Under the pieces are notes generated by a model. It had not been told where the DNA came from. It did not search any database and worked only from the letters and a program-made list of their open reading frames with translations. 64,000 nt of DNA, from NCBI GenBank assembly GCA_963728205.1, contig CAVSIV010000006.1, positions 288,001 through 352,000 on the forward strand. The letters are read 5' to 3'. The stretch comes from an uncultured Chloroflexia bacterium. Its GTDB lineage: Bacteria > Chloroflexota > Dehalococcoidia > UBA2979. Shown piece by piece: positions 33,471-63,071 of this stretch. The position numbers and the translations under genes are program-made. Every line of letters begins with the position of its first letter. Position 1 is the stretch's first letter.

Positions 33471-33484
33471 GGTATCTTGATACC
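33471..33484 (+). promoter_or_regulatory. Palindromic operator of TA operon
   Basis: GGTATC-TT-GATACC overlapping an extended -10-like TGGTATCTT, 13 nt before the antitoxin ATG. Confidence 0.55.
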
Positions 33485-33497
33485 GAGGTGAGTAGCG

Positions 33498-33713: not shown

Positions 33714-33716
33714 CGC

Positions 33717-43426: not shown

Positions 43427-43473
43427 CGCTCCGCCGAATTCGTGCTGTGCGCCGCCAGCCCAGCTCTGGTGAG

Positions 43474-43499
43474 AACGCGCTTGCGCGCTCGTAGGTTCC
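43474..43499 (-). promoter_or_regulatory. ECF-sigma-type promoter
   Basis: GGAAC-N17-CGTT about 50 nt upstream of the 43426 start. Confidence 0.5.
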
Positions 43500-46313: not shown

Positions 46314-46826
46314 ATGACGATGTCTCTCCGGCGGGCGTCTGCCCTCGCACTCGCCGTGGGCGTTGCACTGGCCGCCGCGATCGCAACGGTCGTGCTCCTC
46401 GTCCCGCGCGCGCCGCAAGTCGTCGTCGTCCCAAGCGCCGGCGGCAACGGTCTCACGGTGCGGCTCTTCTACGTCGACGATGCGGGAAGCGTGATCGCAG
46501 GGGGCTGGCCGCCCGCGCCGAGCGACCGCCCCGCCCGATCGTTCTACCTCGTTGAGAATCACGGAGAGGTTCACGCGCTCGAGGCGGCGGATCCCTCCGG
46601 CACCCGATGCTTCGTGATCTGGAGAGCGGACCTGCAGGCGTCGGAGCGGTTCCCTGGCATCGCAGACGGAGATCGGAAGGGATGGTTCAAGGGGCCGTGC
46701 CAGGGTGAGCTGTACGACCTGGACGGCGCGTGCGTCGCTGGCGTGTGCCGCGCGGGCGATCTCAGAAGCTTCCCGGCCACGCGGTCCGGATCATCGATTC
46801 GGATCGAACTTCCTGCGCCCGGTTGA
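46314..46826 (+). CDS. Membrane-anchored Rieske-fold protein lacking Fe-S ligands
   Basis: FYLV...ALEAADPSGTRCFVIW...WFKGPCQGELYDLDG. Confidence 0.7.
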   Translation: MTMSLRRASALALAVGVALAAAIATVVLLVPRAPQVVVVPSAGGNGLTVRLFYVDDAGSVIAGGWPPAPSDRPARSFYLVENHGEVHALEAADPSGTRCFVIWRADLQASERFPGIADGDRKGWFKGPCQGELYDLDGACVAGVCRAGDLRSFPATRSGSSIRIELPAPG

Positions 46827-47117
46827 ACAGGGCGCGGGTCTTTTCTGCCGCACGCTGCATCATCTCCGCTCGTGCCACCAGATCCCGGTAGCGCCGGCGA
46901 CGAGCACGGCCAGGCCCACGCCACCGCCCCAGAATTCGGCCGCGACGAGCACCTTGCTCGATCCCCGCCGGCCGGTGTCCCGATGTGACGAGTGCACGAC
47001 CGCAGGTTCGGGTTGGGCTGACCGGGCGGAAAGCTGATAGCAGTCGATATGGCGTCGTCGGCTGTGTGGGTGCTCGGGCGTGACAACTCGGAGCTCCGCG
47101 TTGCCCGCTGAGCCGGG

Positions 47118-47148
47118 TGAAGTAATTCGCGTCCGTCGCCGGTAGGCT
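47118..47148 (+). promoter_or_regulatory. Leaderless promoter/operator motif shared with 62257-62287
   Basis: TGAAGTAATTCG-N12-GTAGGCT-N6-ATG. Confidence 0.7.
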
Positions 47149-47154
47149 CGTCGT

Positions 47155-47588
47155 ATGCCTCCGCTCTTCCGCCGCAGCCGCGGCCGCCCACCGCATCCCG
47201 ACATCCTCACTCCGGCGGAGTGGCGGGTCGTCGAGGAGGTGCGCAAGGGGCGCACGAATCCCGAGATTGCCGACGCGCTCGACCTCAGCCCGAACACGGT
47301 GAAGACGCACGTCTCGAGTGCGCTCGCGAAGCTCGGCTTCGCGCATCGCGATCAGCTCGCGACGTGGGAGGGACGGCCCGCGGCCGCCGGGCGTGCGTCC
47401 TCGGCGGCGACGGCGTGGACGGCGCTCCTCGGGCACCGGCGGATTGGCCCGGTGGCCACGGCCGCCGCCGGCGTGCTCGTCGTCGTCGCGGTCGGGATCG
47501 CGGCGCGTGCGGCCGTCGGCTCCGCGCGTGGCGGCGCCGGCGCGGGTGCCGCACGCACGCCCTCGCCGGCGGCGGCGCTCGAGCCGGG
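47155..47588 (+). pseudogene. 5' part (LuxR HTH + TM) of a membrane-anchored regulator interrupted by IS21
   Basis: GRPPHPDILTPAEWRV...TNPEIA...TVKTHVS; TM VATAAAGVLVVVAVGIAA; rejoins 50033-51287 in frame. Confidence 0.85.
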
Positions 47589-47728
47589 TGTCGCGCGGCC
47601 ATGTAAAAGTCCGCGCTGGTGGCCAGCGAAAAGTCCGCACCCTTGAGGTCACGGTGATGCACGAAGCCCCCGGAGCGGGGAATGGTGTGGTTGCGACCCT
47701 GCCATCTCCCCGCTCCGAAGGGGCTCCA

Positions 47729-49189
47729 TTGAAGACCGCGAGGGAGCAGTTGGACATCATCAGCGCGTACGAGCAGCTGGGAAGCTACCGCGCAGTGGCG
47801 GCGCTGTGCGGGACGACCGACAAGACGGTGAAGCGGATCGTCGAGCGCGGGCGCCAGGGCGAGCTCGAGCATCGGGCACGCGGGCAGCGACGACCGCATA
47901 AGACGGACACGGCCAGAGCGCTCGTGGAACAGCGGGTGCGGGAGACCGACGGGCGCATCAGCGCGAAGCGACTGCTCGTGGCGGCGCGCGCCGCCGGCTA
48001 CACAGGGTCGGACCGCAGCTTCCGACGCCTGGTCGCCGAGGCGAAGACGGGCTGGCGGGGCAAGCGGCGGATCTACCGGCCGTGGTTTCCACCGCCCGGT
48101 CAGTACCTCGCCTTCGACTGGGGATCGGAGGGGCGCGTCCACCTCTTCTGCGCCGTGCTGGCGTGGAGCCGCTACCGCTTCGTGCGCATCGCCGCCGACG
48201 AGCGCCAGGCGACGACCCTGCGGCTGCTCGCGGAGTGCTTCGAGGAGTTGGGCGGCGTCCCGGAGCTGGCGCTCACCGATCGCATGGCCTGCCTGCGCGC
48301 CGGGATCGTCGCCAACGTCATGATCCCGCACGCGGAGTACGTCCGCTTCGCCGCGCGTTACGGCTTCCGCCCCGACTTCTGCGAGGCGGCGGACCCCGAG
48401 TCGAAGGGACGAGTCGAGCGGCTCGTCGGCTACGCGAAGAGCGACCTGCTCGTCCCGGCCGGCGGCTGGCCCGATCTCGCCGCGGCGAACCGTGCGGCGC
48501 GCGACTGGTGCGCCGAGGTCAACGCACGTCCGCACGCCGAGACGCGCGAAGCGCCGACGATCCGGCTGGCACGCGAGCGTGAGGCGCTCCGACCGCTGCC
48601 CGCGTCGCGGCCGCTGCTCGCGCGCGGCGAGCGGCGCAAGGTCGACAAGCTGGCGACGGTGCGCTTCGGCTCGGCCCGCTACTCAGTGCCGCACCTCTAC
48701 GCCGGCGGCTTTGTCGAGGTCACCGCCAGCGACGGCGAGGTAGTGATCCGGCGCGACGACGAGGAGATTGCCCGCCATCCCCTGGTCGCCCCCGGTGAGG
48801 CCTCAATCTGCGACGACCACTACGGCGGGCCCCGGTCCGGACCGCGGCGCGCGGTGCGACCGCGCTCGGAGTCCGAGCACCGCTTCCTCGCGCTGGGACC
48901 GGAGGCCGAGCACTTCCTGCGCTCCGCCGCAGCCGCCGGCACGTCCCGCCTGGCGTCGGAGCTCGCGTCCATCGTCGAGCTCGAGCCGGCGTGGGAGCGT
49001 GACGTGCTCGTCCGCGCCCTCGAGCGCGCGACCTCCTTCCGCCGCTTCCGGGCGGCGGACGTGCGCTCCATCCTCGAGGCCGGAGCCGGCGTCGCCCAGC
49101 TCGCCGAGCGCGGCGAGCAGCTCCACCTGGAGCACCTGCCCGCGGTCGCGACGCGCTCGCTCGCCGACTACGCGCTGGTGCGGTCGTGA
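47729..49189 (+). CDS. istA: IS21 transposase
   Basis: PPGQYLAFDW, LAWSRYRF, GGVP...TDRM, PESKGRVE. Confidence 0.93.
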   Translation: MKTAREQLDIISAYEQLGSYRAVAALCGTTDKTVKRIVERGRQGELEHRARGQRRPHKTDTARALVEQRVRETDGRISAKRLLVAARAAGYTGSDRSFRRLVAEAKTGWRGKRRIYRPWFPPPGQYLAFDWGSEGRVHLFCAVLAWSRYRFVRIAADERQATTLRLLAECFEELGGVPELALTDRMACLRAGIVANVMIPHAEYVRFAARYGFRPDFCEAADPESKGRVERLVGYAKSDLLVPAGGWPDLAAANRAARDWCAEVNARPHAETREAPTIRLAREREALRPLPASRPLLARGERRKVDKLATVRFGSARYSVPHLYAGGFVEVTASDGEVVIRRDDEEIARHPLVAPGEASICDDHYGGPRSGPRRAVRPRSESEHRFLALGPEAEHFLRSAAAAGTSRLASELASIVELEPAWERDVLVRALERATSFRRFRAADVRSILEAGAGVAQLAERGEQLHLEHLPAVATRSLADYALVRS

Positions 49190-49963
49190 GCCGCGCGGTC
49201 GCTCCGCTCGCCCCCGACCTCGAGTCCGGGCTGCGCCGGCTCAAGCTCGCGCGCATCCGCGCCGTCGCGCCCGAGGTGCTGCAGACCGCGAAGACCCAGC
49301 GCTGGACGCCAGAGGAGCTGCTGCGCACGCTCGTCGAGGCCGAGTGCGCTGCACGCGACGAGGCCAACCTGCGCACGCGCATGCGCACCGCCGGCTTCCC
49401 CGCGGAGAAGCGGCTCGATGACTTCCGGGTCGACGAGTCGAGCGTGCCCGGCGGCACCTTCGACTACCTCGCTTCGCTGGAGTGGCTGCGCGCCCGCGAG
49501 AACGTCTGCCTGGTCGGTCCCGCCGGCACCGGCAAGTCGCATTTGCTCATCGCGCTCGGGCGCGCCGCCGTCGAGACCGGACACCGCGTGCGCTACTTCG
49601 CCGCTGCGGACCTCGTCGAACAGCTCTACCGCGGCCTCGCCGACAACTCGGTGGCTCGGGTGATCGACGGGCTGCTGCGCGCCGACCTGGTCATCTGCGA
49701 CGAGCTCGGTTTCGCCCCGCTCGACGACGTCGGCACGCAGCTCCTCTTCCGCTTCGTCGCCGCGGCCTACGAGCGGCGCTCACTCGGCGTCGCGAGCCAC
49801 TGGCCCTTCGCATCAGTGGGGACGCTTCCTGCCCGAGCCCACCACCGCCGTCTCGCTGCTCGACCGCCTCCTGCATCACGCCGTCGTCGTCACCACCGAG
49901 GGCGACTCCTTCCGCATGAAAGAGGCGCGAGCGAGAGGAGGACCGACCGTGCGCAGACGCTGA
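49186..49963 (+). CDS. istB: IS21 helper ATPase (frameshift about 49811)
   Basis: GPAGTGKSH, DLVICDELG, YERRS; then WGRFL...LDRLLHH...GDSFR in another frame. Confidence 0.9.
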
Positions 49964-50032
49964 TCAGGACCAGGGGTGCGGACTTTTGGTTGGCCACCAG
50001 TGCGGACTTCGGTTTGGCCATTGACAGCCGGG

Positions 50033-51287
50033 GGCGACCACTGGGATAGCGCCGCTTCAGCCCGGAGAGATCAACACCTTGTCCGCATCGCCGTATCCGT
50101 CGGTGTCCATGAGCGCCGTCAACCGCGCTTTCGATGCATCGTCAGTGGATGCAGAGGGCTCGGCACTGCTCTACGACCGCTCGACGGGTCGCGTCTACGC
50201 AATCCGCGGGGTATGGGCCGTCTGCTTCCTGCCATCCGACGGTCCGCAGCCCCTCGCGCTAGCACTGACCCGCTCCGCCAACGGGAACTCAGCTCCTCAG
50301 CGCGCCCTGCTTCTGCGCCTCGATCCCTTCGAAGCGCGCGTGCTCGACGTCCCGATCCGCCCGGCTGGTCCTTGCCTCGGCGACTCCGGTCGGGGCGAGC
50401 ACGATTGGCAAGATCCGCACGCGATTCCGGTCGAAGTCCGCGGCGACCCGATGACCACCGCCGGGAGGCTGCTCCCAACCGGACGCTATGCCTTCGATCC
50501 CGACACGCTGCGCCTCACCTTTCGACAGGTCGAGCCGCCGTTCAACGCGGGACCGCCGGATGGAACGGTGGTTCATCGCTGGCCCGGCGTGCCCGCTGGT
50601 CCCTCGCTGGAGCTTGTCCGCCGACAGGGCCAGACGGACCTGGTCGATACGAACTCCGGACGCACGGTGCTCGTCGGCGTCGATCGCTACGACATCTCCC
50701 CGGATGGGCGGTTACTCGCGACGTACGCGTCCGCGCGGCCCGACGGCCCCCAGCACAGCTTCATCGTCGCCCTCGCCTCCGGGGCCGCGACCCCGATTGC
50801 CGTCGACATCACCGCCGGATTCGCCTGGTCCCCGGACGGTCGCTGGCTCGCCGGTGTGCGGGACGCCGCAAACGGGGGCGTCGTCGCCGTCCGCGTCGGA
50901 CAGACGTCCGGCCCCTCGATCCAGGTCGGCCCTGTGCTGGGTCCGTACCTCGATCGGTTCGCCCTGGGCTGGACGGCGGCCGGCCGCCTGCTGGTGGGGC
51001 GCGGCGGTGGAACCACAAACGAGACAACGGTCGAGACGATCGACCCGGCGACCGGCCGACTCGACACGCTGACCAGTTTGCTCGGTCCCGCGGTCTTCGT
51101 TGAGTCACCCGACGGCAGCGTCGCAGCGACAGGGGAGCGGGGAGTGGTCGCCTTGTACTCGCTGTCCAACGGAAATCGCATGGTTCCGCAACCGCTCGAA
51201 GGCATGGGTTTGACAGGACGGTTCCTCTTCTCCTGGTCCCCCAGTGGGCGCTGGCTGGCCGCGTTCCTTGACAACGGGCAGTCGTGA
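50033..51287 (+). pseudogene. 3' part (external WD40/TolB-like propeller) of the IS-interrupted LuxR-TM gene
   Basis: SPDGRLLA, WSPDGRWLA, SPDGS, WSPSGRWLA; same frame as 47155 after removing the IS and one TSD. Confidence 0.8.
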
Positions 51288-51519
51288 CGCATCCGCTCGC
51301 TCAATCGGTCTGCCTTTGTGGAGGCTCCTCCAGTGGATCTCTCTCGGGCAGGTGGGTGTTGGATCGGTCGTAGCGGCGGGCCGCGCCAAGGCGCGAGTGC
51401 CGGCGGTTCGCGTGCCGAGCTGCCGATCGCGTCAATAGGTGAAGCTGCGGGCGGCGTCGAGCGCGTCGACATCGCCCGGCGCGAGGCGAACGGCGAGCCT
51501 GTTGCGGTAAGCTCCGGCG

Positions 51520-52095
51520 ATGGCTCGCCGCCTGCGCCTCGGCATCGACTTCGACGGCGTCATTTCCGACACGATCGCCGCGATGATCGACTACGCGTCT
51601 GCCGTGCACGGGATCGACCTCGCGCCTCATGAGTGCCTGGTGCCGGCCGGCCCGGCGCGTCTCGGCGTTGAGGCGTACCAAGCGCTGATCGCGGACGCGC
51701 ACGGCACCGAATACGCACTCGGCATGCCCGCGATCCCAGGCGCGCTCGAGGCAATCGCAGATCATGGCGCGCGGCGCGACGCCGTGATCGTTACGGCCCG
51801 CGGCGGCTCGGCGTTCGACCACACATCGACGTGGCTCGCGCGCGCCGGCCTGCGTGACGTGCTGCAAGACGTCGTGTCGTCTCGCGGCGTGACGAAAGCG
51901 GAAGTGGCGACGCGCCTCGGCCTCGACGTTCTGCTCGACGACGTGCCCGCGAACCCGCAGGACCTGCCACGATCGGTGGTGCCGGCTTCGTGGTCGGCCG
52001 TCTACAACGATGCCCTGCCGGTCGGCCGCCGCTGCGCCGCGTCGAGGGATGGGATGCATTCGCGGCGTTGGTCGCGGACCTGGCGGCCGCTAGCG
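51520..52095 (+). CDS. HAD-superfamily NT5C-like phosphatase (3' end frameshifted)
   Basis: GIDFDGVISD, IVTAR, K...LLDD motifs. Confidence 0.75.
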
Positions 52096-52415
52096 CGCCT
52101 ATCCAGACCGAGAGGCAGAGGCCGCCCTGACACCCGGGCGGTGCGTGGCCCCCGTTCCTGGAGTTCGGCCCGGCCCGCATCGGCATGCCGGGGACGTACA
52201 CACCATCACCGGCGGCCTGTTCCCGTTGCCTGCTCCGATAGGCGCTGACATCCCAGGACGTCGCGATCGCCGAGTTCGGCGCACGTGAAACGGGCGCGAA
52301 TGCGCTCGGGATACTGAGTGTGTCGATTCCCGCCCGCCTTCCCGATCGGCTGCTCTCCTGGGGTCGGCGCGGGGCTTCCGGGCCGGCACTTTCCGCGCCT
52401 ACCGGCCGAGTGCTG

Positions 52416-52922
52416 GCTGCCGATGGATCGGACCGGCGCCTGGTCACGAAGCAGGACGCGCCGTTCATCGCTGTCGCGGGGACGTGGGTGTCGAACGACC
52501 GCATTGCCGCATCGGTGGGTAGTACATCGTCCACCCCGGCCATCTTCGGGCTCGATGGCTCGGAGACGCCGGTGAGCGGGCTGCAGGTCGGCAGCGGCGG
52601 AGTGGCGACGCGCCTGGCCGACGGCCGGTGGGTCACCGGCTCGTTCCTGCGGGCGGGGCCGATTCGCGTGGGTATGGCCGGGGCGATGCACACGATCGCG
52701 GACGGACTTTCCCCGGCGCCGTCGCCGAATGGCGGCTGGGTGGCGTTCATCGCGGGCGCAACGCTGCGCGTCGTGCGGATCGACGGTACCGACGACCAGC
52801 AGGTCCTCGACCTCACCTCACGAGGGTGGGATCTTCCGTTTGGCCACCAGTGGGATCTTTAAGCTGGCCGCGCGACATACCGGCAGCCTGTCGTCGCCTG
52901 GAGACCGCAGGGGAGCAGGTGA
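52416..52922 (+). pseudogene. 5'-truncated paralog of the 34343-35368 TolB-like gene
   Basis: AADGSDRRLV...GTWVS...FGLDGS...SPNGGWVAFIAGATLRV align with the intact copy. Confidence 0.8.
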
Positions 52923-52949
52923 CCGTCGGGGCGCGGTCATCACGCCGCG

Positions 52950-54197
52950 TCAGCGCGCCGGCGACTGCCACTGCGTCTGCCATGACACTCCGCCGTCGGC
53001 TGTGTGCAGGATCGCCGAGCGTCCTGTGAACATTGAACCGACGAGCCAGCCCGACGAAGCCGATCGGAATGCGGCGGCGGCCGGCTGCTCGAGATGCGGC
53101 ACAACCGAAGCGGGCGTGCCGACAACGTCGCCGCCGCGGCTGACCAGGACGAACGAGGTCGTCGGCTTGGTAGCGGCCGGCGACCAGCCGAACAGGACGG
53201 CGCCGCTCGCGTCCAGCGCACTGAAGGGTCCAGCTTCCCCCACGTCGAACCGGGCGGCGGCGTCAGGTTCAGTACAGCCACGCAACGACGCATTACAGAC
53301 CACCGTCTGGAAGCCGCCATCGTCTGCACCGTGGTACAGCCAGTAAGCGCAGGTGCCGGCGGCGCAGTTGCCGCGCGCGAGCGCCCAGACCGCCGTCGAT
53401 CCTGCGCACTGAGTGGAGCGAGCGCGACCGAACGCATCGCCGTTCGCCGGGGTGAACGCCTTCGTCCAGGTCCGTCCGGCGTCATGGCTGCGGTACAGAG
53501 CGGCGCTCTCGGTCATCAGCCACCCGTGGTGCGGGTCGCTGAAGCAAACGGACGCCGGGACCTGCGGCGCCGCGACGCGCTCCCACGTGAGTCCCCCGTC
53601 GGTGCTGTGCGCGAGGAACGAAACGCGGCTATCGCCGCGTTCGATGCCCCAGCCGTCGCTCGCCGAGTCGAAGCCCACCTCCTGCAGAGCCGGCGCCGGC
53701 ATCGGTAGCTCCCGCCAGCAGTCCCCGCCGTCGGACGTGACCAGCAGATGCGCTTTCCCGAGCGCCCAGCCGTGCTCCGCGTCGATGAACCGGACCGCTT
53801 GCAGCGCAGCTGTTCCGCGATACTGCTCGGCCCAATGCGCACCCCCGTCGCGCGTCGTGAGGATGCGCCCCGCACCGACCGCCCACCCGCGCGTGTCGGA
53901 GACGAACAGGATGTCGGCGAGCACCGGTGGGGCCGTCGTATCCGCCGCCGGCGTCGCGGTCGATTCACTCCCTACGCACGCGGTCGTGGAGGCTGCGGTC
54001 GTGGTCGGCGTCGGCACGGCGGTGGGCGTGACAGAGCCGGCGATCGCTGCGCCCGGGGACGCGGAGGCTCCTCCGCTCGCGGTGGTGGCTGGTCCGTGAG
54101 CGCCGCTGCAGGCGGTGAGAATTGGCACCAGGACGAGCGCGGCCACCATGCGCGGGCTGATGGCGATCGCTCTCGATGCGCGGCCACGTCTCAGCAT
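52950..54197 (-). CDS. BNR/Asp-box beta-propeller lipoprotein
   Basis: Lipobox LTAC, TRDGGAHW, TSDGGDCW, STDGGLTW, TADGGVSW. Confidence 0.85.
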   Translation of the reverse strand: MLRRGRASRAIAISPRMVAALVLVPILTACSGAHGPATTASGGASASPGAAIAGSVTPTAVPTPTTTAASTTACVGSESTATPAADTTAPPVLADILFVSDTRGWAVGAGRILTTRDGGAHWAEQYRGTAALQAVRFIDAEHGWALGKAHLLVTSDGGDCWRELPMPAPALQEVGFDSASDGWGIERGDSRVSFLAHSTDGGLTWERVAAPQVPASVCFSDPHHGWLMTESAALYRSHDAGRTWTKAFTPANGDAFGRARSTQCAGSTAVWALARGNCAAGTCAYWLYHGADDGGFQTVVCNASLRGCTEPDAAARFDVGEAGPFSALDASGAVLFGWSPAATKPTTSFVLVSRGGDVVGTPASVVPHLEQPAAAAFRSASSGWLVGSMFTGRSAILHTADGGVSWQTQWQSPAR

Positions 54198-54407
54198 GAG
54201 CGCTCCGAATCGAATCAGCCTGCCGCCGATGACAGTGGGTGCCCGACGGTGGCCAGAAAGCCAGACTGCCCGACCTCGGGCTCGAGCACCAGATCTCACG
54301 ACGTCGGCCCCACGCGGGCGTCATGCCAGAGCCGGAGCCGGGGCGAGCCGTACCGCGTCCTGGACGCACTACGGGACCAGGACGCTCAGCGCTCTCACCG
54401 CTGCCGG

Positions 54408-55106
54408 TTATCGGATGGAAGTCGGCTCGACCGGTGTGGACGGAGATGCGCTGGCCCCGGCCCATCCGGGCCGCACGGGGTGAGCGCTGAGGCTCGTCGC
54501 GTCCGGGCTGCTGACGGTGAGCGACGTCAGGCGCGGCGATGGTCCGAGCGTCGTGTCCGGCATGTCGATGCCCGCGAAGAGCGTGAAGGTGATCCACACC
54601 TCCCGCTCGGGGTGCGCGAGCGTGACCGTCACGTGGTGGGGTCCTGACGCGTTGACGACGCCGCCGTTGTACGGCGAGCCTCCGGGGGACTGCATGCGGA
54701 ACTGGCTGCCCGCCGGGCTCACCTGCGACCACGCGACGGAGAAGCGGTCGAGCGGGGTTGGGGACGTGACGAGCACCTCGTAGAACCCATAGCGCTGTGC
54801 GGTTGGCGGTGAGCCGACCCAGGTCGGGCGCGAGATGTGATCGATTGCGATCACGACCGCGCCCGTGTTGTCGATGGCCACGTCGCAGCAGTGCGGGTCG
54901 GGGAACCGGGTGATGTGGACCTGCGCCACCGCGGGCGGCTGGGCCTGCGTCGGCGAAGCGGACGCCGTGACCGCAGCACGACTCGTCGTAGGGGTTGACG
55001 TCGGCGCCGCGCCAGGCGGGGCCCCGCGGGCGCACCCGCTCAGCGCGATCAGCGCAATCACCATCGTCGTGGCCCGTAGACGTGAGGGAGTTGCACGCCT
55101 TCGCAC
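54408..55106 (-). CDS. Hypothetical lipoprotein
   Basis: Lipobox LSGC, P/T linker. Confidence 0.65.
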   Translation of the reverse strand: MRRRATPSRLRATTMVIALIALSGCARGAPPGAAPTSTPTTSRAAVTASASPTQAQPPAVAQVHITRFPDPHCCDVAIDNTGAVVIAIDHISRPTWVGSPPTAQRYGFYEVLVTSPTPLDRFSVAWSQVSPAGSQFRMQSPGGSPYNGGVVNASGPHHVTVTLAHPEREVWITFTLFAGIDMPDTTLGPSPRLTSLTVSSPDATSLSAHPVRPGWAGASASPSTPVEPTSIR

Positions 55107-55256
55107 GTTGCGCCTCCTGCTGCGGGCTGCTCGCGATAGTCGCGGTTGGCGCGGAAGACGGCCGTACGGCGGGCGCGACGAGTCGAGGGCGCGGTCCGGC
55201 TCGCTGGGTCTATCTAGCGTATGAGTTCCATGCTGTCGGCGATGCGCAGCAATTGA

Positions 55257-55870
55257 TGTCGCTGATCACGGTAATTAAGCAGATGGCCGGGGATCTTGAT
55301 CGTGGTTATTGACCAGGTCGCTGATCACGGGAATTGACCACCGGGCCCTCCTGAGGAGGCCATCCAGCACGATCAGCCTGCGGCGGACACCGCAGGAGGG
55401 CGTGGATGGCGCGAAGGAGGATCGAGGTGGGAGACGTCCGGGAGATCCTGGCGCAGTGGGACGCCAGCGAGAGCATCAGCGCGATCGCCGGGGCGCTGGG
55501 GTACACGCGGGTCACCGTGCGCAAGTACGTCCGTGCAGCCGAGTCGGTGCGGTTGGTGCGGGGAGCGCAGCGCCGCCGCGATGCGAGCTCGGAGCGGCTC
55601 GCGGCCTCGGCGATGGCCCCACTGAGCGCGGCGCGCACGCCCGGTGCGGCGGGCGAGGAGGTGGCGCGGCTGCACAAGATGATCCAGCCGCACATCGGCG
55701 CCGTACGGTTGAGCGTGCTGCATCAGCGCCTGCGTGACGAGCACGGACTGCGCGCGAGCTGGGGCACCTTCTACCGCTACGCGCGCGCCCACTGGCCCGA
55801 GCAGGTCGGCGCCGGACCCCGCGTTACCTCGCGCCGCCCCGACGACCCGCCCCCGGGCGAGGAGGCACTA
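55257..55870 (+). mobile_element. Truncated IS21-family element (left end + istA N-terminus 55406-55870)
   Basis: TGTCGCTGATCACGG end with repeated gtcgctgatcacggnaatt boxes; MARRRIEVGDVREIL...TVRKY...PPPGEEA. Confidence 0.75.
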
Positions 55871-55893
55871 TGTGGAATTCCACATAGTGCCTC
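55862..55893. repeat. Perfect 32-bp palindrome at IS junction
   Basis: gaggcactatgtggaattccacatagtgcctc equals its own reverse complement. Confidence 0.9.
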
Positions 55894-55974
55894 TTATGCG
55901 GCTTCCGGGAATATGCGGCACCGGGGCGAGGGCGGAAGGGGGGGCTCTTCGGCGAGCTCCAGACGACATTCGGG

Positions 55975-56345
55975 GTGGAGGTAGCACGCCTCGCGGAGCT
56001 GGCCGTCGACGCCCTCGGCGAGCGCGACGGCCTGGCCACGCTCGAGCGGTCGATCCGCACCGCGATGGCGAAGTTGGGGGCGACACCACCTTCCTCGAAG
56101 GGCTGCTCGCGGCCGACCGCGGACACCGCGGTCAGCGCATCGATTGCGGAGCAGGCCACCAGGCAAGAGTTCGTCGGCTACCGTCCTCGGACCCTCGACA
56201 CCGTGCTCGGGCCGATCACGCTGCGACGCGCCTACTACCGCTGTAGGGAATGCGCGCACGGCGTGGTGCCGCGCGACGAGGCGCTCGGCGTCACGAGCGC
56301 CTCGCTCTCTCCTGGGCTGCGTGCGATGGTGGCGCCGGTGGGGCG
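55975..56345 (+). pseudogene. ISKra4/UPF0236-family transposase fragment
   Basis: CGAGH...TVLGPITLRRAYYRCRECAHGVVPRDEALG...SLSPG; frameshifted and truncated. Confidence 0.75.
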
Positions 56346-56369
56346 AGAGTATGCCCTCGCCACGCGCCC

Positions 56370-57620
56370 CTACTGGTCCGGAGCGAGTAACAGTCGCACA
56401 TCCTCGCCCTTAGCTACCACCTGGCCTCGAACCGTCACTGAGATGGGGAGTCTCGCTCCGGTTTGATCGACGCACCGCCCGGGAAAGGTCTCGCCGGAAT
56501 AGACACGTCTGCTAAGCAGCTCCTGACCGTGGCAGGTGAACCCTACGCCGCCATCTCCGTGCCAGTGCGCCAGGAGCGATGGCGCATCGCTGACGGCGGT
56601 GCTATCTCCTGTCTTTACGTCTAACACCGACCATGTAGCTGCAGGAGAGGCATTGCCGCAATTCGTCCCCTGATCTCCCGTCGGACTCCGTCCAACGGTC
56701 CGAGAGTATAGGAGCCCAGAGTCGGTAGGCGCCCACTCCCAAGCAGTGATGTTATCTGTAGCAGATGTTATCGCAGTGCGGACGACGCCATCTCGCGCAC
56801 CAACGATTTCCATTCGATGCGACTCAACATCGTCACAGACGTGTTGACTGATTGCTTGCTCAGCGATTAGTTGCCCATCCCAAGATGGAACAGCATATCC
56901 GCTGGTCTCTATGTACTTATCCACTGTGCCGTGCTGTACAATGCCGAAGTCCCGCGGCCCTTCTCCTGATCCCGACGAGAACGCCACCAGCACGGAACCA
57001 TCATTTAACATCGCAATAGGTGAAGACATCGGCCGACCGCGCTTCGCGGCAGCTGCTGGTACTCCTTGGAGAACGATACTAGCAGCACCACTTGAAAGGT
57101 CGACCGCTGCAATCGACGATCTGTGAGGACATGGCGTCGCGCATTTCGCGGATTCATCCACAATCATCGCAACGTTCCCAGTCGTGACAAAAGAAGAAAT
57201 CACATGTCTATTGTTAACCGAAAATATCGCGCCGAGCTTCTGACCGTCGAGCCGATATTTGACCAAGGATTGCCCAGTATTAACGACCAGGAATTCGCGT
57301 GTGCTCGCTAGTCCAGCAATCCGCTCGCCCACCTTGCCGAGGCTGAAAGTCACACTGTTCGAAGGGTGGGAGACGGACGCCGTCTTTATCTCGTAGGTCG
57401 GCCATGTTCTTCCGTTGGCGACTTGGGAAGATATTTGCGACATGACGACAATCCGCTCAGACTCCGGAATTGCCTTCAGCGGATCGCCACGATCGCAGGA
57501 CATGATTATGAAAGCAAGAAGCAACAACGTCGCCGGTCCCACCAAGCGCATTTGGCGATATCTCTCACTCGGTTGTTCGAGCTGGCGCAGGGCAAAGGCA
57601 CCCTGCGCCAGCCCAGACAA
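56370..57620 (-). CDS. Beta-propeller-like lipoprotein, low-GC homolog of the 35365-37177 C-terminal domain
   Basis: IIMSC lipobox; GRTWPTYEI, WEWAPTD, WHG...FTCHG shared motifs. Confidence 0.7.
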   Translation of the reverse strand: MSGLAQGAFALRQLEQPSERYRQMRLVGPATLLLLAFIIMSCDRGDPLKAIPESERIVVMSQISSQVANGRTWPTYEIKTASVSHPSNSVTFSLGKVGERIAGLASTREFLVVNTGQSLVKYRLDGQKLGAIFSVNNRHVISSFVTTGNVAMIVDESAKCATPCPHRSSIAAVDLSSGAASIVLQGVPAAAAKRGRPMSSPIAMLNDGSVLVAFSSGSGEGPRDFGIVQHGTVDKYIETSGYAVPSWDGQLIAEQAISQHVCDDVESHRMEIVGARDGVVRTAITSATDNITAWEWAPTDSGLLYSRTVGRSPTGDQGTNCGNASPAATWSVLDVKTGDSTAVSDAPSLLAHWHGDGGVGFTCHGQELLSRRVYSGETFPGRCVDQTGARLPISVTVRGQVVAKGEDVRLLLAPDQ

Positions 57621-57643
57621 CCTACCACACGCTGTCCCGGTCG

Positions 57644-58345
57644 CTAGAACTCTAGCCGATGGAGCCAGGTACTACTGCCGATTGGCTGCTTTCCACTCGG
57701 AACGGTGCAGTTCGGGTATGGATAAGCGGTATAGCCGCTTTCGCAGTACGGGATTCCGGTTCCATTCGTGTGCTGGTGATTGGTCGGGTGGTTCAGTTGA
57801 TCCCCATCTTGATGCAAGTGCGGGTGATCCCACAAGTTGGGCGCGCAGAGCGGTTGCGTGGACGCAACAGTACCGAGGTACGTACTCTGGTTGCCGGTGC
57901 CGATGGACCAGCTGCTTCCGACGACGCCAGTGGCGTTATCGATGTGGGTGTAGCTCTCCTGCCCAAGGTACGTACCGAACGTGGGATCGTAGAACTCGAC
58001 ATAGAGGCCGGTGCATCCAGAGCCATTGTCGAAGGCGTCCGCATCGACCCCGCCACTGATCCCGTACGTCTTCAGGTACACCGACATGCCGGCATCTGCA
58101 TCAGCCGTGCTTCCCCAGTTCAGGTCGAGCCCTGACGTACCACTTGGCCGGGCATGCCACCCATAGTGGTAGACACCTGAGGTCGCGCTGAGCCCGTAGT
58201 AGATTGCTACTGACTTACCTGTGCTGTGGGCTGATACTTGCGGCGAATTAGCCGCTAGTCCTCCACCTACGATCAAGGCGAATCCGAGCAGTGATGCTAG
58301 CGCCAAGCTCCTAACCCGCCGGTCTTTGAGCACTTTGGTTGTCAC
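57644..58345 (-). CDS. Secreted protein, divergent M23 peptidase-like
   Basis: Signal peptide; H...GLDL, YTHI, YLGTV, HPHLH. Confidence 0.55.
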   Translation of the reverse strand: MTTKVLKDRRVRSLALASLLGFALIVGGGLAANSPQVSAHSTGKSVAIYYGLSATSGVYHYGWHARPSGTSGLDLNWGSTADADAGMSVYLKTYGISGGVDADAFDNGSGCTGLYVEFYDPTFGTYLGQESYTHIDNATGVVGSSWSIGTGNQSTYLGTVASTQPLCAPNLWDHPHLHQDGDQLNHPTNHQHTNGTGIPYCESGYTAYPYPNCTVPSGKQPIGSSTWLHRLEF

Positions 58346-58953
58346 TACTTCACCTCCAGGTCGGTCGTAAGTGCGACGACGGAAGAACTGTCGGGGAAGT
58401 TGAAGGCAGTCAGGATAGTTTCGATCCCGCCGTCCACCCATCGAAGATGGCGCGGATTGGTCTGAGGCGCCGCGATCTTTGGCTCAATGAGTACAGCTGG
58501 TCCGCGTGGAGTCTGGATGGCCTCCGTTCGGGTCCACTTCTGGTCGGCGAGTACGACATCCAATGGCAACTCAGGCGGCCTCCACCTCCGAACGCGGACC
58601 GTCCGCGTGCCGTTACTGTAGGTTGACGTGATGTCGACTGCGCCAGAGGTTGCTCTAGCGCCGACCGCGTCGACAAGCGGTAGCGATCCGACTTGCCCCG
58701 GCACGAGGCCAGGAAGTAACGTTTGTGTCTCCGCAATACCGGCGGCTTGCTGCCACGACAACCGCGCCGTTCCTGGTGGGACCGCGGGCTGAAGCGGAGA
58801 GCCAGGCGGGAGCAGCCGGTAGGCTCCGTGAAGGCGAGGTGCTGATTGCTGGGCGCCGCCCGTCCCCTGCGTAAGGATGAAAACTCCGATTGCAAGGCTG
58901 ACGGCGAGGAGCGCCGGCAGGAACAGTCGGAGATTCTTCATGCGTAACATCAC
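58345..58953 (-). CDS. Exported hypothetical protein
   Basis: N-terminal hydrophobic helix; stop/start overlap with the next gene; RBS gaggag. Confidence 0.65.
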   Translation of the reverse strand: MMLRMKNLRLFLPALLAVSLAIGVFILTQGTGGAQQSAPRLHGAYRLLPPGSPLQPAVPPGTARLSWQQAAGIAETQTLLPGLVPGQVGSLPLVDAVGARATSGAVDITSTYSNGTRTVRVRRWRPPELPLDVVLADQKWTRTEAIQTPRGPAVLIEPKIAAPQTNPRHLRWVDGGIETILTAFNFPDSSSVVALTTDLEVK

Positions 58954-59751
58954 TGCTTCTCCTCTGCATGGACAGTGCAGGTGAGCGACGGTTCTGGAAT
59001 CCGACGACCGTCGGCGCGCTCAGCATTAACGTCGGCAGGCGACGGGCGGCGCCATTCGGAAGCCATGCCTCCCCCTAATCGGCTCCGGGATTCTGCAATC
59101 TGGCCGGTTCCCTCTGACATCGCTCTTCTTCGACGGGAGAGTCCGTCTTCTCGGCTAGGGCCGTCCACCCCACTCTTGCTGATATTCATCGTCACTTCAG
59201 ATGAATTGCTTCGTGATCAGCGGGGTTGACACGGAGTGCGATATACGATGATGGCGACGCCGACGCGGTCGTCGCCGTCGGGCCCCGGAAGCATGGGGTT
59301 GGCGCGACAAGGTGCGCTGAGCCAGATGGAAGACAGCGACTAGGAGCACCGACCGCATACCCGGAAGACGGCCATTGCGAGGGGCCCACCGATGAGACCT
59401 TGATTGCTCAACGCAATCAAACCGCGAGGCAGACCTCAACTGAGCGAGAATAGGGGCAACGTGAGCCCTATCGGTCGCGGTCGTTCTGCATGATGCACAA
59501 CAAGCTTGAGCCCGCGTGATGGGATGGTCGAGCGCGCCTTAGCACCCGAACCTGCGGCGGCGGGGCCTGGGGCCAGCCCCCGCAGGCTCGCTCGACGACG
59601 TCCCGCCCGGCCACCCTATCGCGCAGGGAGGCGATCAGCACGGCCCGCGCTCGACTGGATGCCTGCGCCCGCCCGAGCGTGGCGCGCAGAGTGATTCACG
59701 ACACGCTAAGGGGCGAGCGATTCGCAGCAGGCCGAAGAGGGAGATGTGCGG

Positions 59752-60060
59752 TCATTTTCCAATCCGCAAGTCTACTTGCTCAGCCAACGTACGGACATCC
59801 GAATGCGGAGGGCATCCAGCGAAAATGCAGCACCCAGCGTGATTAGCACACCAGAGTGCCAGTTGCTGCCCATTGTGCAGACCGGTCTTTCCGCGAATTC
59901 GCGTGAGGTGAGATCGCACCGTTGGGAGGGAGATTGCGAGATCAGATGCGATTCGAGTGGGTACGTGGCCCACGTAGAATAGCGCGGCTACTTCCGATTC
60001 TCTCCGCGTAAGCTCAACATGATCCGGCTGGCATCTGTCGGACGGTCGTGGAAGCATCAT
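59752..60060 (-). CDS. Small LuxR-family HTH protein
   Basis: LTRRESEV...IASDLAISLPTVRSHLTRIRGKTG; Cys-rich tail. Confidence 0.75.
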   Translation of the reverse strand: MMLPRPSDRCQPDHVELTRRESEVAALFYVGHVPTRIASDLAISLPTVRSHLTRIRGKTGLHNGQQLALWCANHAGCCIFAGCPPHSDVRTLAEQVDLRIGK

Positions 60061-60273
60061 GGGAACCCATTTCTGCCGGCCCGTTCTTGCCGCAGTTGAT
60101 CTCCTTCCTGCGCGCGCTCGGAACGCGCCGGACTGGGGCGCGGCCGATCTGAAACGTACGCACGCGCATACGTCAACATTATGCATGCCTATATAACGTT
60201 GTTGCGGCGATGTCCGGGTACGGTCGGAGGCGGCACAGTCCGGGGCTAGAACAGCTGGGCTAGCGCGCTTTAG

Positions 60274-60518
60274 GTAAGCGATCATGGTGACCGTTCCGAG
60301 CGGGAAGTCCGAAACCGGACCCGGCGTCGAACAGTCCGCTGTGACCGCCGCCACAGGCGGCGATGGTCACGACCACGGCAGGGAGCGCCACCGCGAGCGT
60401 GAGCCGCATCCACCACGGCCGTCGCCGGTGCGCGCTGGCCGGGTCCGACCCTCGCGGAACGGTCGTAGGCGGCGGCTGGATCATGACAGCCGCCGGGGCG
60501 TCAGACGGAAGACGACGA
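60274..60518 (-). repeat. Truncated duplicate of the 5' end of the 62347-62862 Rieske-like gene (direct repeat of 62728-62958)
   Basis: About 240 bp near-identical with a few indels. Confidence 0.9.
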
Positions 60519-60603
60519 GGCGACCGCGACCGGCCCGCGGTCCTCCCGGCGTCCGTCGCAGGGCCATGCGCGCACCGCGCGGACAGGCATTGGGACGCGC
60601 CAG

Positions 60604-60966
60604 CTACGCGCGCTCGACCAGCCGGGCGAGGTCCCCCGGATCGAACGGCTTGAAGAGCGTGCGCGCCCCGAGCGCCGCGGTCGCGGCGGCGACCTTGCGC
60701 GAGGTCGTCATCGCCACCACCCGCAAGGCCTGGTCTCCGCTGGTCTCGTGCAGCCGACGGAGGTCATCAAGCCCCTCGCCGCTCGGAGCCGGGGGGTCGA
60801 GGAACAGGATGGTGGGGCCGAAGCAGTCGACCTCCGCGCACACGCCCGCCGGCGCCAGCACCGCGCGGACGTGGTGTCCCGCCTCCTCGAGATCCAGGCG
60901 GAGGAGGTCGGCGATGGCCCGGTCGTGCTCGATGATCAGCACGCGCTCGGCGCGCGAGGTCGCCAT
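60604..60966 (-). CDS. Single-domain response regulator receiver (atypical)
   Basis: VLIIEHD, ILFLD, VVAMT, LFKPFD. Confidence 0.8.
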   Translation of the reverse strand: MATSRAERVLIIEHDRAIADLLRLDLEEAGHHVRAVLAPAGVCAEVDCFGPTILFLDPPAPSGEGLDDLRRLHETSGDQALRVVAMTTSRKVAAATAALGARTLFKPFDPGDLARLVERA

Positions 60967-61135
60967 GCCCGTTTCCGTCCTCCGCCATGACGGCAGTTCG
61001 CAGGCGCTCCCCGAGCGGCCGACCCACCGCGCCGGGCGCCCGCAGCATATGCGCTGCGAATCTGCTCCGAGCGCTGCACGGCCACGGGCGGCCCGTGGGA
61101 CCGGCACCGACCGGCCTCGCGGCCCGCAGCTCGCC

Positions 61136-61465
61136 TCACGAGTTCGCGGCCTCGAGGTAGCCGTGCACGGCGGCCGCCACGCGGGCGAAGGTGTCCGGCG
61201 CCTCCCACCCGTTGGAGAGGATCGCCAGCACGTAGGTGCCGAAGGGCGCCTTGACGATGGCGACGTCATGCGCGGCGCCCGCGTAGTCGCCGGTCTTGTT
61301 TCCGACGACGCTGCCGTCGTCGGGGATGCCGCTGGGGATGCGCGAGCGGATGCGCTGCTGCGCGAGCAGGTCGAACACCTGGGCGGCCACCGCGGGCGTC
61401 GGCTTCCCGCGCGCGATCGCCTCGAGCACGCGCGCCATGTCCGCCGCCGTGGTCGGCAGGGCCCA
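61136..61465 (-). pseudogene. C-terminal fragment of class A beta-lactamase-like serine hydrolase
   Basis: TTAADMARVL, NKTG, HDVAIV, YVLAILS; SxxK and SDN regions missing. Confidence 0.8.
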
Positions 61466-62249
61466 GGATACCCGGCGTGGCGATACACGGCTCGCCACGT
61501 ATCCCGCAGTACGTCCCGTGGGCGAGCACCCGCAGCGCGATTACGAGTCCGTCGACCACGACCGGCACATCGCGCCAGGGGAGCGTGAGCGATGCGACGG
61601 CTACTCCGGACACCGGAGTAGCAGAGACGGTGACTCGCGGATCAGTTCCAAATCGGTACGCGCGGAAGTCGACCCGCGTCGCGCTGGCCGGCACGACCGC
61701 GCTGACCTTGATCTGAACGCTGCCGACGACGTGGACCGTTCCACCCTTTGGGTCGGCGTGCGAATCGACGTAGGACGGCGTGAGCAGGCGGAGCTGCGCG
61801 GTCGCGGTGTCCCCGGCGGGCGCCGTCCTCGTGGGGGACGGGGACGCGGTGCGGCCCGTAGCGCCGGGCTGCACCGCTGCCCCGCGAAACGCGGCGATCA
61901 CGACAAGTGCCGCGAGCCCGGTTGCGACGGCGCCGCCAACGAGACGCGCAACTCGGGGCACCCCGAGCCCCCGCTCCATCAGCCAGCCGCCGAGCGCGAA
62001 GCCTCGCGTGCGCCTTGCCGAGGACGCCGGTGTTCCGGCCCACGCCGCGAGCGCCAATCGGTCCGAGCAGTCGAGCTTCGCGAGCATGCTCGAGACATGC
62101 GTCTTGATGGTAGGAACGGTGAGCCCGAGCCGCTCCGCGATCTCGGGATTCGAGAGTCCGTCGCGGACACAGTCGAGCACGCGCCACTCGGCGGGGGTCA
62201 GGACGTCGGGGTGCGGCGGCCGTCCACGAGCGTGTCGTCTCCAGGGCAT
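61266..62249 (-). CDS. Membrane-anchored LuxR-HTH protein (HTH-TM-linker-beta-rich domain); 3' end probably deleted at about 61465
   Basis: GRPPHPDVLTPAEWRV...SNPEIA...TIKTHVS; TM LVGGAVATGLAALVVIAAF. Confidence 0.8.
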   Translation of the reverse strand: MPWRRHARGRPPHPDVLTPAEWRVLDCVRDGLSNPEIAERLGLTVPTIKTHVSSMLAKLDCSDRLALAAWAGTPASSARRTRGFALGGWLMERGLGVPRVARLVGGAVATGLAALVVIAAFRGAAVQPGATGRTASPSPTRTAPAGDTATAQLRLLTPSYVDSHADPKGGTVHVVGSVQIKVSAVVPASATRVDFRAYRFGTDPRVTVSATPVSGVAVASLTLPWRDVPVVVDGLVIALRVLAHGTYCGIRGEPCIATPGILGPADHGGGHGARARGDRAREADARGGRPGVRPARAAAHPLAHPQRHPRRRQRRRKQDRRLRGRRA

Positions 62250-62256
62250 GAGCGCC

Positions 62257-62287
62257 AGCCTACGAGCGCCCGCGACGAATTACCTCA
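62257..62287 (-). promoter_or_regulatory. Leaderless promoter/operator motif shared with 47118-47148
   Basis: TGAGGTAATTCG-N12-GTAGGCT-N7-ATG. Confidence 0.7.
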
Positions 62288-62346
62288 TACCGTGCTGCCA
62301 CCACGAGCGCGAGACCGATGAAGGCGGGCTGCCGCGCGTTGGCATC

Positions 62347-62862
62347 TCAGTGGCTGCAATCGTCCCGACTGCCGGGGATCAGCGCTGCCGGAGAGAGCGT
62401 CACGATGACGTGCTCGTCGCGGACGCGGACGGGATAGCCGTCGAGGCCGCGCGGCGACGGTCCGAAGACCCGGCACCCCGTGAGCTCGTAGGTCGACCCG
62501 CTGCAGGGGTCACGGAACCAGCCCGTCCCGGGCTCGTCGTCGAATTTGAAGTCAGGGCGCCAGGGCACCGTGCAGTGCCGTGCCGGATGCGAGTCCCTCG
62601 CCGAGAGGGCGAGGATCGTCCCATCCTCGAGATGCACGACGTGGAAGACGATCGTTGCGGGCGACAGATTGGCCAGCGGGACGGGGTACCCGCCGGCGGC
62701 GCTCCGCCCGACTTCGTGACCGTCGGCGTACGCGATCGTGGTGACCGTTCCGAGCGGGAAGTCCGAAACGGGACCGGCGTCGAACAGTCCGCTGTGACCG
62801 CCGCCACAGGCGGCGATGGTCACGACCACGGCAGGGAGCGCCACCGCGAGCGTGAGCCGCAT
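62347..62862 (-). CDS. Rieske-fold lipoprotein lacking most Fe-S ligands
   Basis: IAAC lipobox; ALSARDSHPARHCTVPW...WFRDPCSGSTY...GPSPRGLD. Confidence 0.8.
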   Translation of the reverse strand: MRLTLAVALPAVVVTIAACGGGHSGLFDAGPVSDFPLGTVTTIAYADGHEVGRSAAGGYPVPLANLSPATIVFHVVHLEDGTILALSARDSHPARHCTVPWRPDFKFDDEPGTGWFRDPCSGSTYELTGCRVFGPSPRGLDGYPVRVRDEHVIVTLSPAALIPGSRDDCSH

Positions 62863-63071
62863 CCACCACGGCCGTCGCCGGTGCGCGCTGGCCGGGTCCG
62901 ACCCCTCGCGGCGGCTGGGTCATGGACAGCCGCCGGGGCGTCGGACGGAGGACGACGACACGGTCCTCGGAGGGTCCCTCTCTATGGCAACTGCATGATG
63001 GCGTCGTGCAATTCATGGCTCCCCTGTCGGTAGAGCTTGCCGTTGAACTCGCCATAGCCCTTCGCACTCAA

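Follow-up and report, generated by a model that had tools for sequence, protein, structure and literature searches.

Predicted transmembrane regulators with an N-terminal LuxR-type DNA-binding domain and exchangeable outside domains, and their cluster-less Rieske-like neighbours, in Chloroflexota

Membrane-tethered one-component regulators are common, but studies exist only for those of the ToxR/CadC type and for a few of the LuxR type. In a census of transmembrane transcription regulators (TTRs), 4,943 of 50,302 proteins use GerE for DNA binding, single-pass forms are the commonest (56%), one entry is a GerE protein of 515 residues with a single transmembrane (TM) segment from a Tepidiforma-like Chloroflexota genome, and only two genomes of the class Dehalococcoidia were included (Demey et al., 2023; PMC10269533). 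The present text concerns two genes for regulators of this kind in a stretch of 64,000 nucleotides from an uncultured Chloroflexia bacterium (positions 288,001 to 352,000 of contig CAVSIV010000006.1, GenBank assembly GCA_963728205.1; hereafter the window). Each of them encodes a LuxR/GerE helix-turn-helix (HTH) at the extreme N-terminus, a predicted TM helix and an outside domain, and each follows a gene for a Rieske-fold protein without the cysteines that hold the iron-sulfur cluster. TTRs are proteins that carry one or more TM regions besides a DNA-binding domain (PMC10269533), and the two regulators, with a TM segment assigned here by hydropathy, are built in this way. The N-terminal-LuxR regulators thus sit within a catalogued class, in which they are abundant and uncharacterised as a family: the census gives a count and neither a family definition nor a domain order, a promoter or a function for the N-terminal-GerE group (PMC10269533), and full-text searches of the literature found no description of an N-terminal-LuxR, single-TM regulator family.

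The ToxR/ToxS, TcpP/TcpH and VtrA/VtrC systems likewise have an N-terminal cytoplasmic DNA-binding domain, one TM segment and an outside sensor (PMC9214523, PMC7496328), and the window resembles ToxR/ToxS further in that the gene for a small outside protein adjoins that of the regulator. The differences from ToxR/ToxS are that the DNA-binding domain is of the GerE/LuxR type rather than an OmpR-type winged helix, that the neighbour has the Rieske fold, and that this neighbour is not conserved beside membrane-type regulators (0 of 28 loci sampled from the Rieske side). Other membrane-bound LuxR regulators have been described. DadR, HcdR and CadR of the Coriobacteriia, with 10-12 TM helices, are experimentally shown activators, and regulators of this type are strongly expanded in one lineage and often lie beside the genes that they control (PMC9734109). 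They share with the window regulators the LuxR/GerE HTH on a membrane protein, but their HTH is C-terminal and their sensor is made of 10-12 helices, whereas the window regulators have an N-terminal HTH, one TM segment and a globular outside domain (PMC9734109). In the Bacteroidota, BguR (and SusR) show the reverse order, from signal peptide through sensor and TM segment to a C-terminal GerE domain, and BguR is tied to a polysaccharide-utilisation locus in a phylum other than that of the window regulators (bioRxiv 10.64898/2026.01.10.698779).

A preliminary description of this DNA had proposed a repeated module, in which a ligand-less Rieske gene is followed by an N-terminal LuxR-TM regulator, at 46314/47155 (+) and 62862/62249 (-), and both pairs are indeed present. 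Pair 1, on the + strand, consists of the Rieske-like open reading frame (ORF) 46269/46314-46826 (P0001) and the regulator ORF that starts at 47155 (P0002); pair 2, on the - strand, consists of the Rieske-like ORF 62862-62347 (P0004) and the regulator ORF 62249-61266 (P0005). The two Rieske-like proteins are 36% identical (E 3e-10) and the two regulators 47% identical over 140 residues (E 4e-29). Both regulators begin, as had been stated, with ...RGRPPHPD(I/V)LTPAEWRV and continue into a GerE HTH (PF00196) that scores well above the curated cut-off of 23.5 bits, with 53.9 bits at residues 17-70 of regulator 1 and 48.1 bits at residues 15-71 of regulator 2; GerE and related HTH models are the only ones that match, and Trans_reg_C, the OmpR-type winged helix, gave no match in either of them. 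The TM helix claimed for both corresponds to a single hydrophobic segment in each (residues 97-115 of P0002 and 103-121 of P0005; Kyte-Doolittle value of at least 1.6). The window has a GC content of about 70-72%, with a stretch of about 60% at 56-60 kb; its genome is a high-GC one related to metagenome-assembled genomes (MAGs) of Chloroflexota, and the stretch that holds both pairs is rich in insertion sequences and rearrangements. Taken together, the observations described below make it moderately probable that these are transmembrane regulators with exchangeable ectodomains, accompanied by an independently shuffled Rieske envelope module, and that what links the two is the relation of a regulator to a neighbouring gene that it possibly regulates.

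The architecture of the regulators recurs in a large family. With residues 1-130 of P0005 as the family query, 294 proteins were found at E<=1e-3, the named ones coming from Dehalococcoidia or other Chloroflexota MAGs, and phmmer over 1.84 billion cluster representatives gave 17,547, 1,153 and 6 matches at E<=1e-3, 1e-10 and 1e-30, respectively. In LuxR/GerE regulators the HTH usually lies at the C-terminus, behind a regulatory domain. Such an arrangement is not seen here: both window genes have the HTH at the very beginning of the protein, and so do 140 of the 150 best phmmer relatives, whose single match starts no more than 28 residues from the N-terminus. The remaining 10, all long proteins, have several HTH stretches in their interior. 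Among the 120 relatives listed (of the 294), 116 have a hydrophobic segment, at a median of 83 residues past LTPAE, and 104 have exactly one, with a median of 330 residues beyond it. The consensus of the N-terminal part is R..RGRPPHPDVLTPAEWRVLE.LR.G.TNAEIA.RLG.S.NTVKTHVS.MLAKLEL.DR.ALAAW.G.P, and it is followed by one nearly invariant Trp ahead of the TM segment. A tblastn search of plasmids with the regulator N-terminus returned generic LuxR matches only, at 45-54% identity. Six very long proteins (P0162, P0163, P0164, P0172, P0179 and P0205; 2,854-7,703 residues) carry 6-17 separate LuxR-type HTH stretches.

What lies beyond the membrane segment varies. The precomputed Pfam domains in the C-terminal parts of the relatives include PD40/TolB-like, Kelch, LysM, RCC1, LRR, CarboxypepD_reg and DUF4115, and the relatives without a TM segment end in a Glyoxalase or HATPase_c domain. 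Exchange of the ectodomain at the linker is well supported, most directly by the proteins P0096 and P0160, which are 71% identical over residues 1-148 and have no similarity beyond that point. P0096 and P0113, the latter with the order GerE-TM-LysM, are probably paralogs from the window's own genome. The relatives bear out the N-terminal LuxR HTH, the TM segment and the swappable outside domain of the preliminary description. The ectodomains of the window itself (P0009, P0005 residues 135-265 and P0007), together with the C-terminus of P0012, gave self-matches only when compared by BLAST with the 120 relatives and all ORFs of the 28 loci. Two of the related sequences are irregular, since P0161 reads as a frame-garbled copy of P0160 and P0096 has a garbled middle section.

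The upstream motif that both regulators had been said to share is also found, at nearly the same offset from the start codon:
47122 to 47148, + strand: promoter-like motif GTAATTCG-N13-TAGGCT, 6 nucleotides before the ATG of regulator 1 (sequence search)
62257 to 62283, - strand: promoter-like motif GTAATTCG-N13-TAGGCT, 7 nucleotides before the ATG of regulator 2 (sequence search)
The common layout is therefore GTAATTCG-N13-TAGGCT-N6/7-ATG. The element GTAATTCG occurs twice in the 64 kb, at 47122 (+) and 62283 (-), with 0.31 occurrences expected and two reached in 3 of 100 shuffles. Related regulators in four other loci (L005, L009, L010 and L012) are preceded by GGGGAGGGTAA(T/A)TC-N13-TA(G/A)(C/G)AT, with a short spacer before the inferred start. 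These features suggest a promoter with a -10-like TAnnnT box and, because this box lies 6-7 nucleotides before the start codon, a leaderless mRNA; an overlapping, putative autoregulatory site is possible. The Rieske-like genes differ in this respect, as no comparable common motif was found upstream of those in the window (GC-rich 9-11-mers only) and the regulator-promoter motif was not found upstream of those in the loci.

A member of this family would be built from a cytoplasmic N-terminal LuxR/GerE HTH behind a basic RGRPPHPD arm, a TM helix about 83 residues further on and, beyond a linker rich in Pro and Thr, an outside domain that can be exchanged. By analogy with the ToxR/CadC-type and other membrane regulators, the outside domain would report an envelope or external ligand, and the signal would either alter the DNA binding of the tethered HTH or trigger its proteolytic release. 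The second of these routes can be pressed further, to a mechanistic variant of the favoured reading in which the regulators stay inactive, as precursors tethered to the membrane, until regulated proteolysis activates the HTH. The N-in layout with its short cytoplasmic HTH, single TM segment and long Pro/Thr linker would suit such precursors, as would a nearly invariant Trp in the region just before the membrane; nevertheless, neither a protease gene nor a cleavage motif was identified, the data are equally compatible with action at the membrane, and this variant is considered very improbable.

Evidently, the copies of the regulator genes in the window have not remained whole. Regulator 1 had been described as a single ORF, and an insertion sequence (IS) within it had been overlooked:
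47155 to 47588, + strand: 5' part of regulator 1, with GerE HTH, TM segment and Pro/Thr/Ala linker ending in ...LEPG (74% identity to P0160 residues 1-147)
47589 to 50026, + strand: IS21-family insertion (Pfam rve, Mu-transpos_C_2 and IstB_IS21; terminal repeats; target duplication)
50033 to 51287, + strand: 3' part of regulator 1, an outside domain with a PD40 repeat (76% identity to P0160 residues 148-566)
The frame that starts at 47155 ends at 47646, inside the element, and the PD40 part appears as a separate ORF (P0009, 50079-51287). Typical of the IS21 family are an istA gene (DDE transposase) followed by istB (AAA+ helper), inverted repeats at the ends, motifs repeated just inside them and a short duplication of the target. 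The element found here, of 2,438 bp, has ends of the form TGTC...GACA, a 39-nucleotide inverted repeat at 90%, doubled repeats of 18-21 nucleotides at each end and a 6-bp target duplication (GCCGGG at 47583-47588 and 50027-50032). Its istA gene (about 47650-49189) matches the rve, Mu-transpos_C_2 and HTH models in a frame different from that of regulator 1, and its istB gene (49186 to about 49975; IstB_IS21 E 1.5e-41) has a frame break near 49815. When the element and one copy of the duplication are removed, 47155-47588 runs in frame with 50033-51287. That regulator 1 has been split by the element is confirmed by P0160, an intact ortholog in another genome (568 residues, GerE and PD40), which spans the junction ...LEPG|A... 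and matches both halves without a gap. The insertion point is the end of the Pro/Thr linker (...LEPG), the place at which the paralogs P0096 and P0160 lose their similarity. The propeller call for this ectodomain depends on one PD40 repeat match; an AlphaFold2 model from a three-row alignment is all-beta, with a predicted local distance difference test score (pLDDT) of 48.5, too low in confidence for a fold search.

Regulator 2, taken as intact in the preliminary description, changes frame near 61455 and continues as a beta-lactamase-like stretch:
61455 to 62249, - strand: regulator 2, with GerE HTH, TM segment, Pro/Thr linker and beta-rich region (Pfam, codon GC pattern, hydropathy)
61136 to 61453, - strand: 3' part of a class-A-beta-lactamase-like sequence (Beta-lactamase2 positions 134-213 of 214, E 3e-17)
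The GC content by codon position supports the frame of regulator 2 only down to about 61500-61450, after which the coding signal is in another frame; the ORF itself continues to 61266 as an Arg/Pro/Gly-rich stretch without a coding pattern, and the Beta-lactamase2 match at 61453-61136 lies in a frame different from that of the regulator. The break is possibly a frameshift, real or due to the assembly, within a larger ectodomain, or possibly a deletion that joined the regulator to a gene remnant; an assembly error is possible because P0096 and P0161 also look frame-garbled. A comparison of the regulator-2 ectodomain with the ESM Atlas gave no usable match.

The second component of each pair belongs to a family of its own, whose copies in the window are listed here together with the LuxR-only gene at 59752-60060:
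44862 to 46127, + strand: P0012, composed of a hydrophobic anchor at the N-terminus, the third Rieske-like domain (about 44883-45410) and a C-terminal region of 230 residues (tblastn, family hidden Markov model)
46314 to 46826, + strand: Rieske-like gene 1 (P0001), divergent, with a signal-anchor (115.7 bits to the family hidden Markov model; long branch in the tree)
62347 to 62862, - strand: Rieske-like gene 2 (P0004), with a sub-threshold Rieske_2 match (22.2 bits, cut-off 27)
60274 to 60518, - strand: duplicate of the upstream region and the first 45 or so codons of gene 2 (matches 62728-62958)
59752 to 60060, - strand: gene for a small, soluble LuxR-only protein, within the DNA of about 60% GC; the C-terminal part of ORF P0006 (GerE E 2e-9)
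A search with P0004 gave 27 relatives at E<=1e-3. The AlphaFold2 model of P0004 from a 23-row alignment (pLDDT 88.4, predicted template modelling score 0.81) finds only Rieske proteins among its top Foldseek matches in the PDB, with 9rk4_A and 8hn2_A at E of about 3e-5, then b6f and bc1 subunits, and the alignment profile matches 9rk4_A with E 7.4e-14. The similarity to the Rieske subunits of cytochromes bc1 and b6f and to related soluble Rieske domains (9rk4, 8hn2, 5cxm, 2zt9) extends from the fold, with a TM-score to target of 0.67-0.69, to an N-terminal membrane anchor, present as a hydrophobic segment in all members, and to the disulfide Cys pair. The CxH...CxxH ligands of the cluster are, in contrast, not kept. 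In 66 aligned family sequences the first ligand Cys position holds D in 41, S in 14, N in 4, E, A and G in 2 each and T in 1, the second holds D in 61, E and A in 2 each and G in 1, and Cys occurs at neither (0 of 66); His is present in 36 sequences at the first ligand His position and in 20 at the second, whereas the disulfide Cys is present in 61 at the first position and in all 66 at the second. As both ligand Cys are replaced, mostly by Asp, these proteins would be unable to hold a Rieske [2Fe-2S] cluster, although the disulfide pair is conserved, and the earlier reading of a ligand-less Rieske protein thus holds. The family is an outside-facing, cluster-less derivative of respiratory-type Rieske subunits. 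Cluster-less Rieske-like proteins exist elsewhere, NirD being an example; a literature search on such proteins found nothing.

The copies in the window differ among themselves. The six aligned ligand and disulfide positions read DHCDCS in P0004, DSCGCQ in P0001 and SHAECL in P0012, so that the Cys pair is kept in the first two and its first Cys is absent from P0012. The last of these, a protein of 421 residues whose N-terminal Rieske-like domain was not part of the preliminary description, was found by tblastn with P0004 (E 3e-19) and scores 114.5 bits with the family model; its C-terminal 230 residues match no family, and Pfam gave nothing for P0012 or P0001. The N-terminus of P0004 resembles a lipoprotein-type signal. 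A truncated Rieske copy before a soluble LuxR gene had been placed at 60484 and regarded as a possible chance association. It lies at 60409-60274, shows 100% and 94% protein identity to the first 45 residues of P0004, and is part of a 245-bp direct repeat (60274-60518 against 62728-62958, 94-98% identity) that includes the upstream region; judging by this repeat, it arose by recent duplication and breaks off at the 60%-GC DNA, and it does not represent a module of its own. With the regulator-family model, the LuxR gene that follows it reaches only 32.8 bits.

Rieske-like domains have also been joined to other outside parts, as fusions to unrelated outside domains are found in loci L001, L006 and L021 as well as in P0012. 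P0004 groups with L001, L006 and L021 (support 83), which have lipoprotein-like Rieske domains, Pro/Thr linkers and repeat domains. A lipoprotein-like ORF of the window at 42002-43636 (-), without a Rieske domain, has a C-terminus of 260 residues that is 50% identical to the domain fused in L006 and shows 41-44% identity to the repeats of L021; this resemblance implies that outside domains are shuffled between genes.

The relation between the two families was assessed in 28 loci with Rieske-like genes from other genomes, 27 of which are titled as MAGs of the Chloroflexota lineage (Dehalococcoidia, Dehalococcoidaceae, Chloroflexia, Chloroflexi, Chloroflexota). The commonest context, in 10 of the 28 (L002, L007, L013, L014, L015, L017, L018, L019, L026 and L027), is a single Rieske-like gene, or a pair of them, preceded by the gene of an enoyl-CoA hydratase and followed by that of an AMP-binding ligase, often with two genes of about 80 codons and a second hydratase upstream; in L023 only the hydratase lies beside the Rieske-like gene. 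A cytochrome bc-type operon was considered and rejected, since the downstream proteins of about 520 residues are AMP-binding ligases and the upstream ones enoyl-CoA hydratases, and no cytochrome b gene was found near the Rieske-like genes in the loci annotated. A strong match to the regulator family (81-105 bits) lies within 605 nucleotides of the Rieske-like gene in 5 of the 28. In L005 and L012 the regulator is directly downstream on the same strand, in L009 and L010 it is downstream with an opposite-strand GNAT gene between, and in L011 it is divergent and cut by the contig end. Four of these five regulators are GerE+Glyoxalase proteins of about 214 residues without a TM segment and the fifth, in L011, is incomplete; by family model and Pfam annotation, none of the 28 loci has a Rieske-like gene beside a regulator shown to be membrane-anchored. 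The four soluble regulators have the same N-terminal arm as those of the window, and their loci (L005, L009, L010, L012) share a conserved block of an ammonium transporter, a small Trans_reg_C-only gene, the Rieske-like gene, the GerE+Glyoxalase regulator and a VanZ-like gene.

These counts bear on the notion of a co-component system, in which the Rieske-like protein would be a dedicated outside partner that controls the activity or stability of the regulator, as ToxS, TcpH and VtrC do. The ToxS-like role was part of the preliminary description, and it finds no counterpart in the 28 loci, where the adjacent regulators are four soluble proteins and one cut off. The arrangement in the window is what such a system would look like: each of the two membrane-type regulators is immediately preceded, on its own strand, by a Rieske-like gene, and both proteins are predicted to face outside; the adjacency to regulators with the same HTH in five further loci, always within 605 nucleotides, is in line with it, and, as the window copies fall outside the clade of those five, it may have arisen repeatedly. 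Nevertheless, a soluble GerE+Glyoxalase regulator is beyond the reach of a periplasmic partner, the neighbours of most Rieske-like genes are unrelated, fusions to other domains occur, the unrelated ectodomains of the window would each need to bind a homologous partner, and the regulators carry a promoter of their own. A co-component system is consequently thought unlikely, and slightly more so the broader claim that cluster-less Rieske ectoproteins are dedicated partners of the mostly-Chloroflexota N-terminal-LuxR family, forming a co-component cassette with a Rieske-fold outside co-sensor. If that claim were true, the conserved disulfide and the Asp/His-substituted cluster site could report the redox or metal status of the envelope, the exchangeable regulator ectodomain would add a second input, and the co-sensor would have a Rieske fold instead of a lipocalin-like one.

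At the other extreme, there may be no functional link at all, and the adjacency would go back to shared ancestry and to local duplications within a plastic stretch of shuffled envelope genes. The region has an IS21 element, an ISKra4 transposase fragment, the 245-bp duplication and DNA of about 60% GC, as well as several unrelated lipoprotein or propeller genes; the commonest context of the Rieske-like genes is metabolic (hydratase and acyl-CoA ligase), and the co-localisations in other genomes are confined to one clade. Against this view, the five strong regulator matches near Rieske-like genes are the only ones in the 328,672 bases of the loci, which argues that the adjacency is not random, the window adds two pairs whose Rieske copies lie outside that clade, and the order of a Rieske-like gene followed on one strand by a regulator recurs, twice in the window and in L005, L012, L009 and L010. 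The absence of a link is a possible explanation, albeit a doubtful one. In the favoured reading, the Rieske-like proteins would be membrane-anchored outside domains that come from respiratory Rieske subunits and are encoded in settings of their own, for the most part unrelated. What connects the two families is the N-terminal HTH and not the ectodomain, which favours a regulator with a neighbour that it possibly controls, or shared descent, over a ToxS-like periplasmic partner.

Several points weigh against the favoured reading. In both pairs of the window it is the membrane-anchored type of regulator that accompanies a Rieske-like gene, a fact for which the co-sensor model has a direct explanation. 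The Rieske-like proteins of the five regulator loci form one clade (support 87 in the Shimodaira-Hasegawa-like approximate likelihood ratio test), with the window copies outside it, and represent at most about three lineages, so that the five co-localisations are weaker evidence than five independent events. A single scan of species-representative genomes, made from the Rieske side with the pattern GWFRDPCxG only, gave the 28 loci; divergent copies such as P0001 and P0012 would be missed by it. The TM calls come from a Kyte-Doolittle scan and not from a dedicated topology predictor, and the DNA binding, the membrane location, the leaderless transcription and the signal of the regulators are all inferred. 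Finally, the garbling of P0161 and P0096 means either many decayed paralogs or indel errors of the assembly, and assembly error could also explain the frame breaks in istB and in regulator 2.

Some other features of the window complete the picture of its surroundings:
60604 to 60966, - strand: stand-alone receiver-domain gene, 120 residues (Response_reg E 2.8e-8)
It is flanked by the beta-lactamase-like fragment and by the duplicated 5' end of Rieske-like gene 2. The DNA of about 60% GC at 55975-60270 adjoins a fragment of an ISKra4-family transposase (55975-56466), and its ORFs at 56370-57620, 57644-58441 and 58345-58953 had no match in Pfam, NCBIfam or PADLOC; the first of them is weakly resembled by the ORF 35365-36324 (E 3e-9). 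Rfam (44-64 kb) and a tRNA scan gave nothing. Further outside beta-propeller-type ORFs lie within 35365-38895 and at 52950-54299 (-), with PD40 in 37174-38895 and a BNR/Ycf48-like domain in 52950-54299. A stretch from 22000 to 34200, where the GC content falls to 0.65-0.70, encodes a phage-type integrase (26889-27923) and a Fic/DOC protein (33714-34103) and is possibly an integrated element.

Some caution is called for, as both modules of the window have suffered damage and the partner model is not borne out more widely. What emerges is a second uncharacterised family, that of outside-facing Rieske-fold proteins which have lost the iron-sulfur site and kept the cysteines of the disulfide, next to a delimited, mostly Chloroflexota family of regulators with the reverse of the usual layout (LuxR HTH first, one TM segment, an exchanged outside domain) and an apparently leaderless promoter. 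The HTH, the promoter and the intact orthologs of these regulators offer a way into the study of envelope sensing in a phylum that has hardly any genetics.

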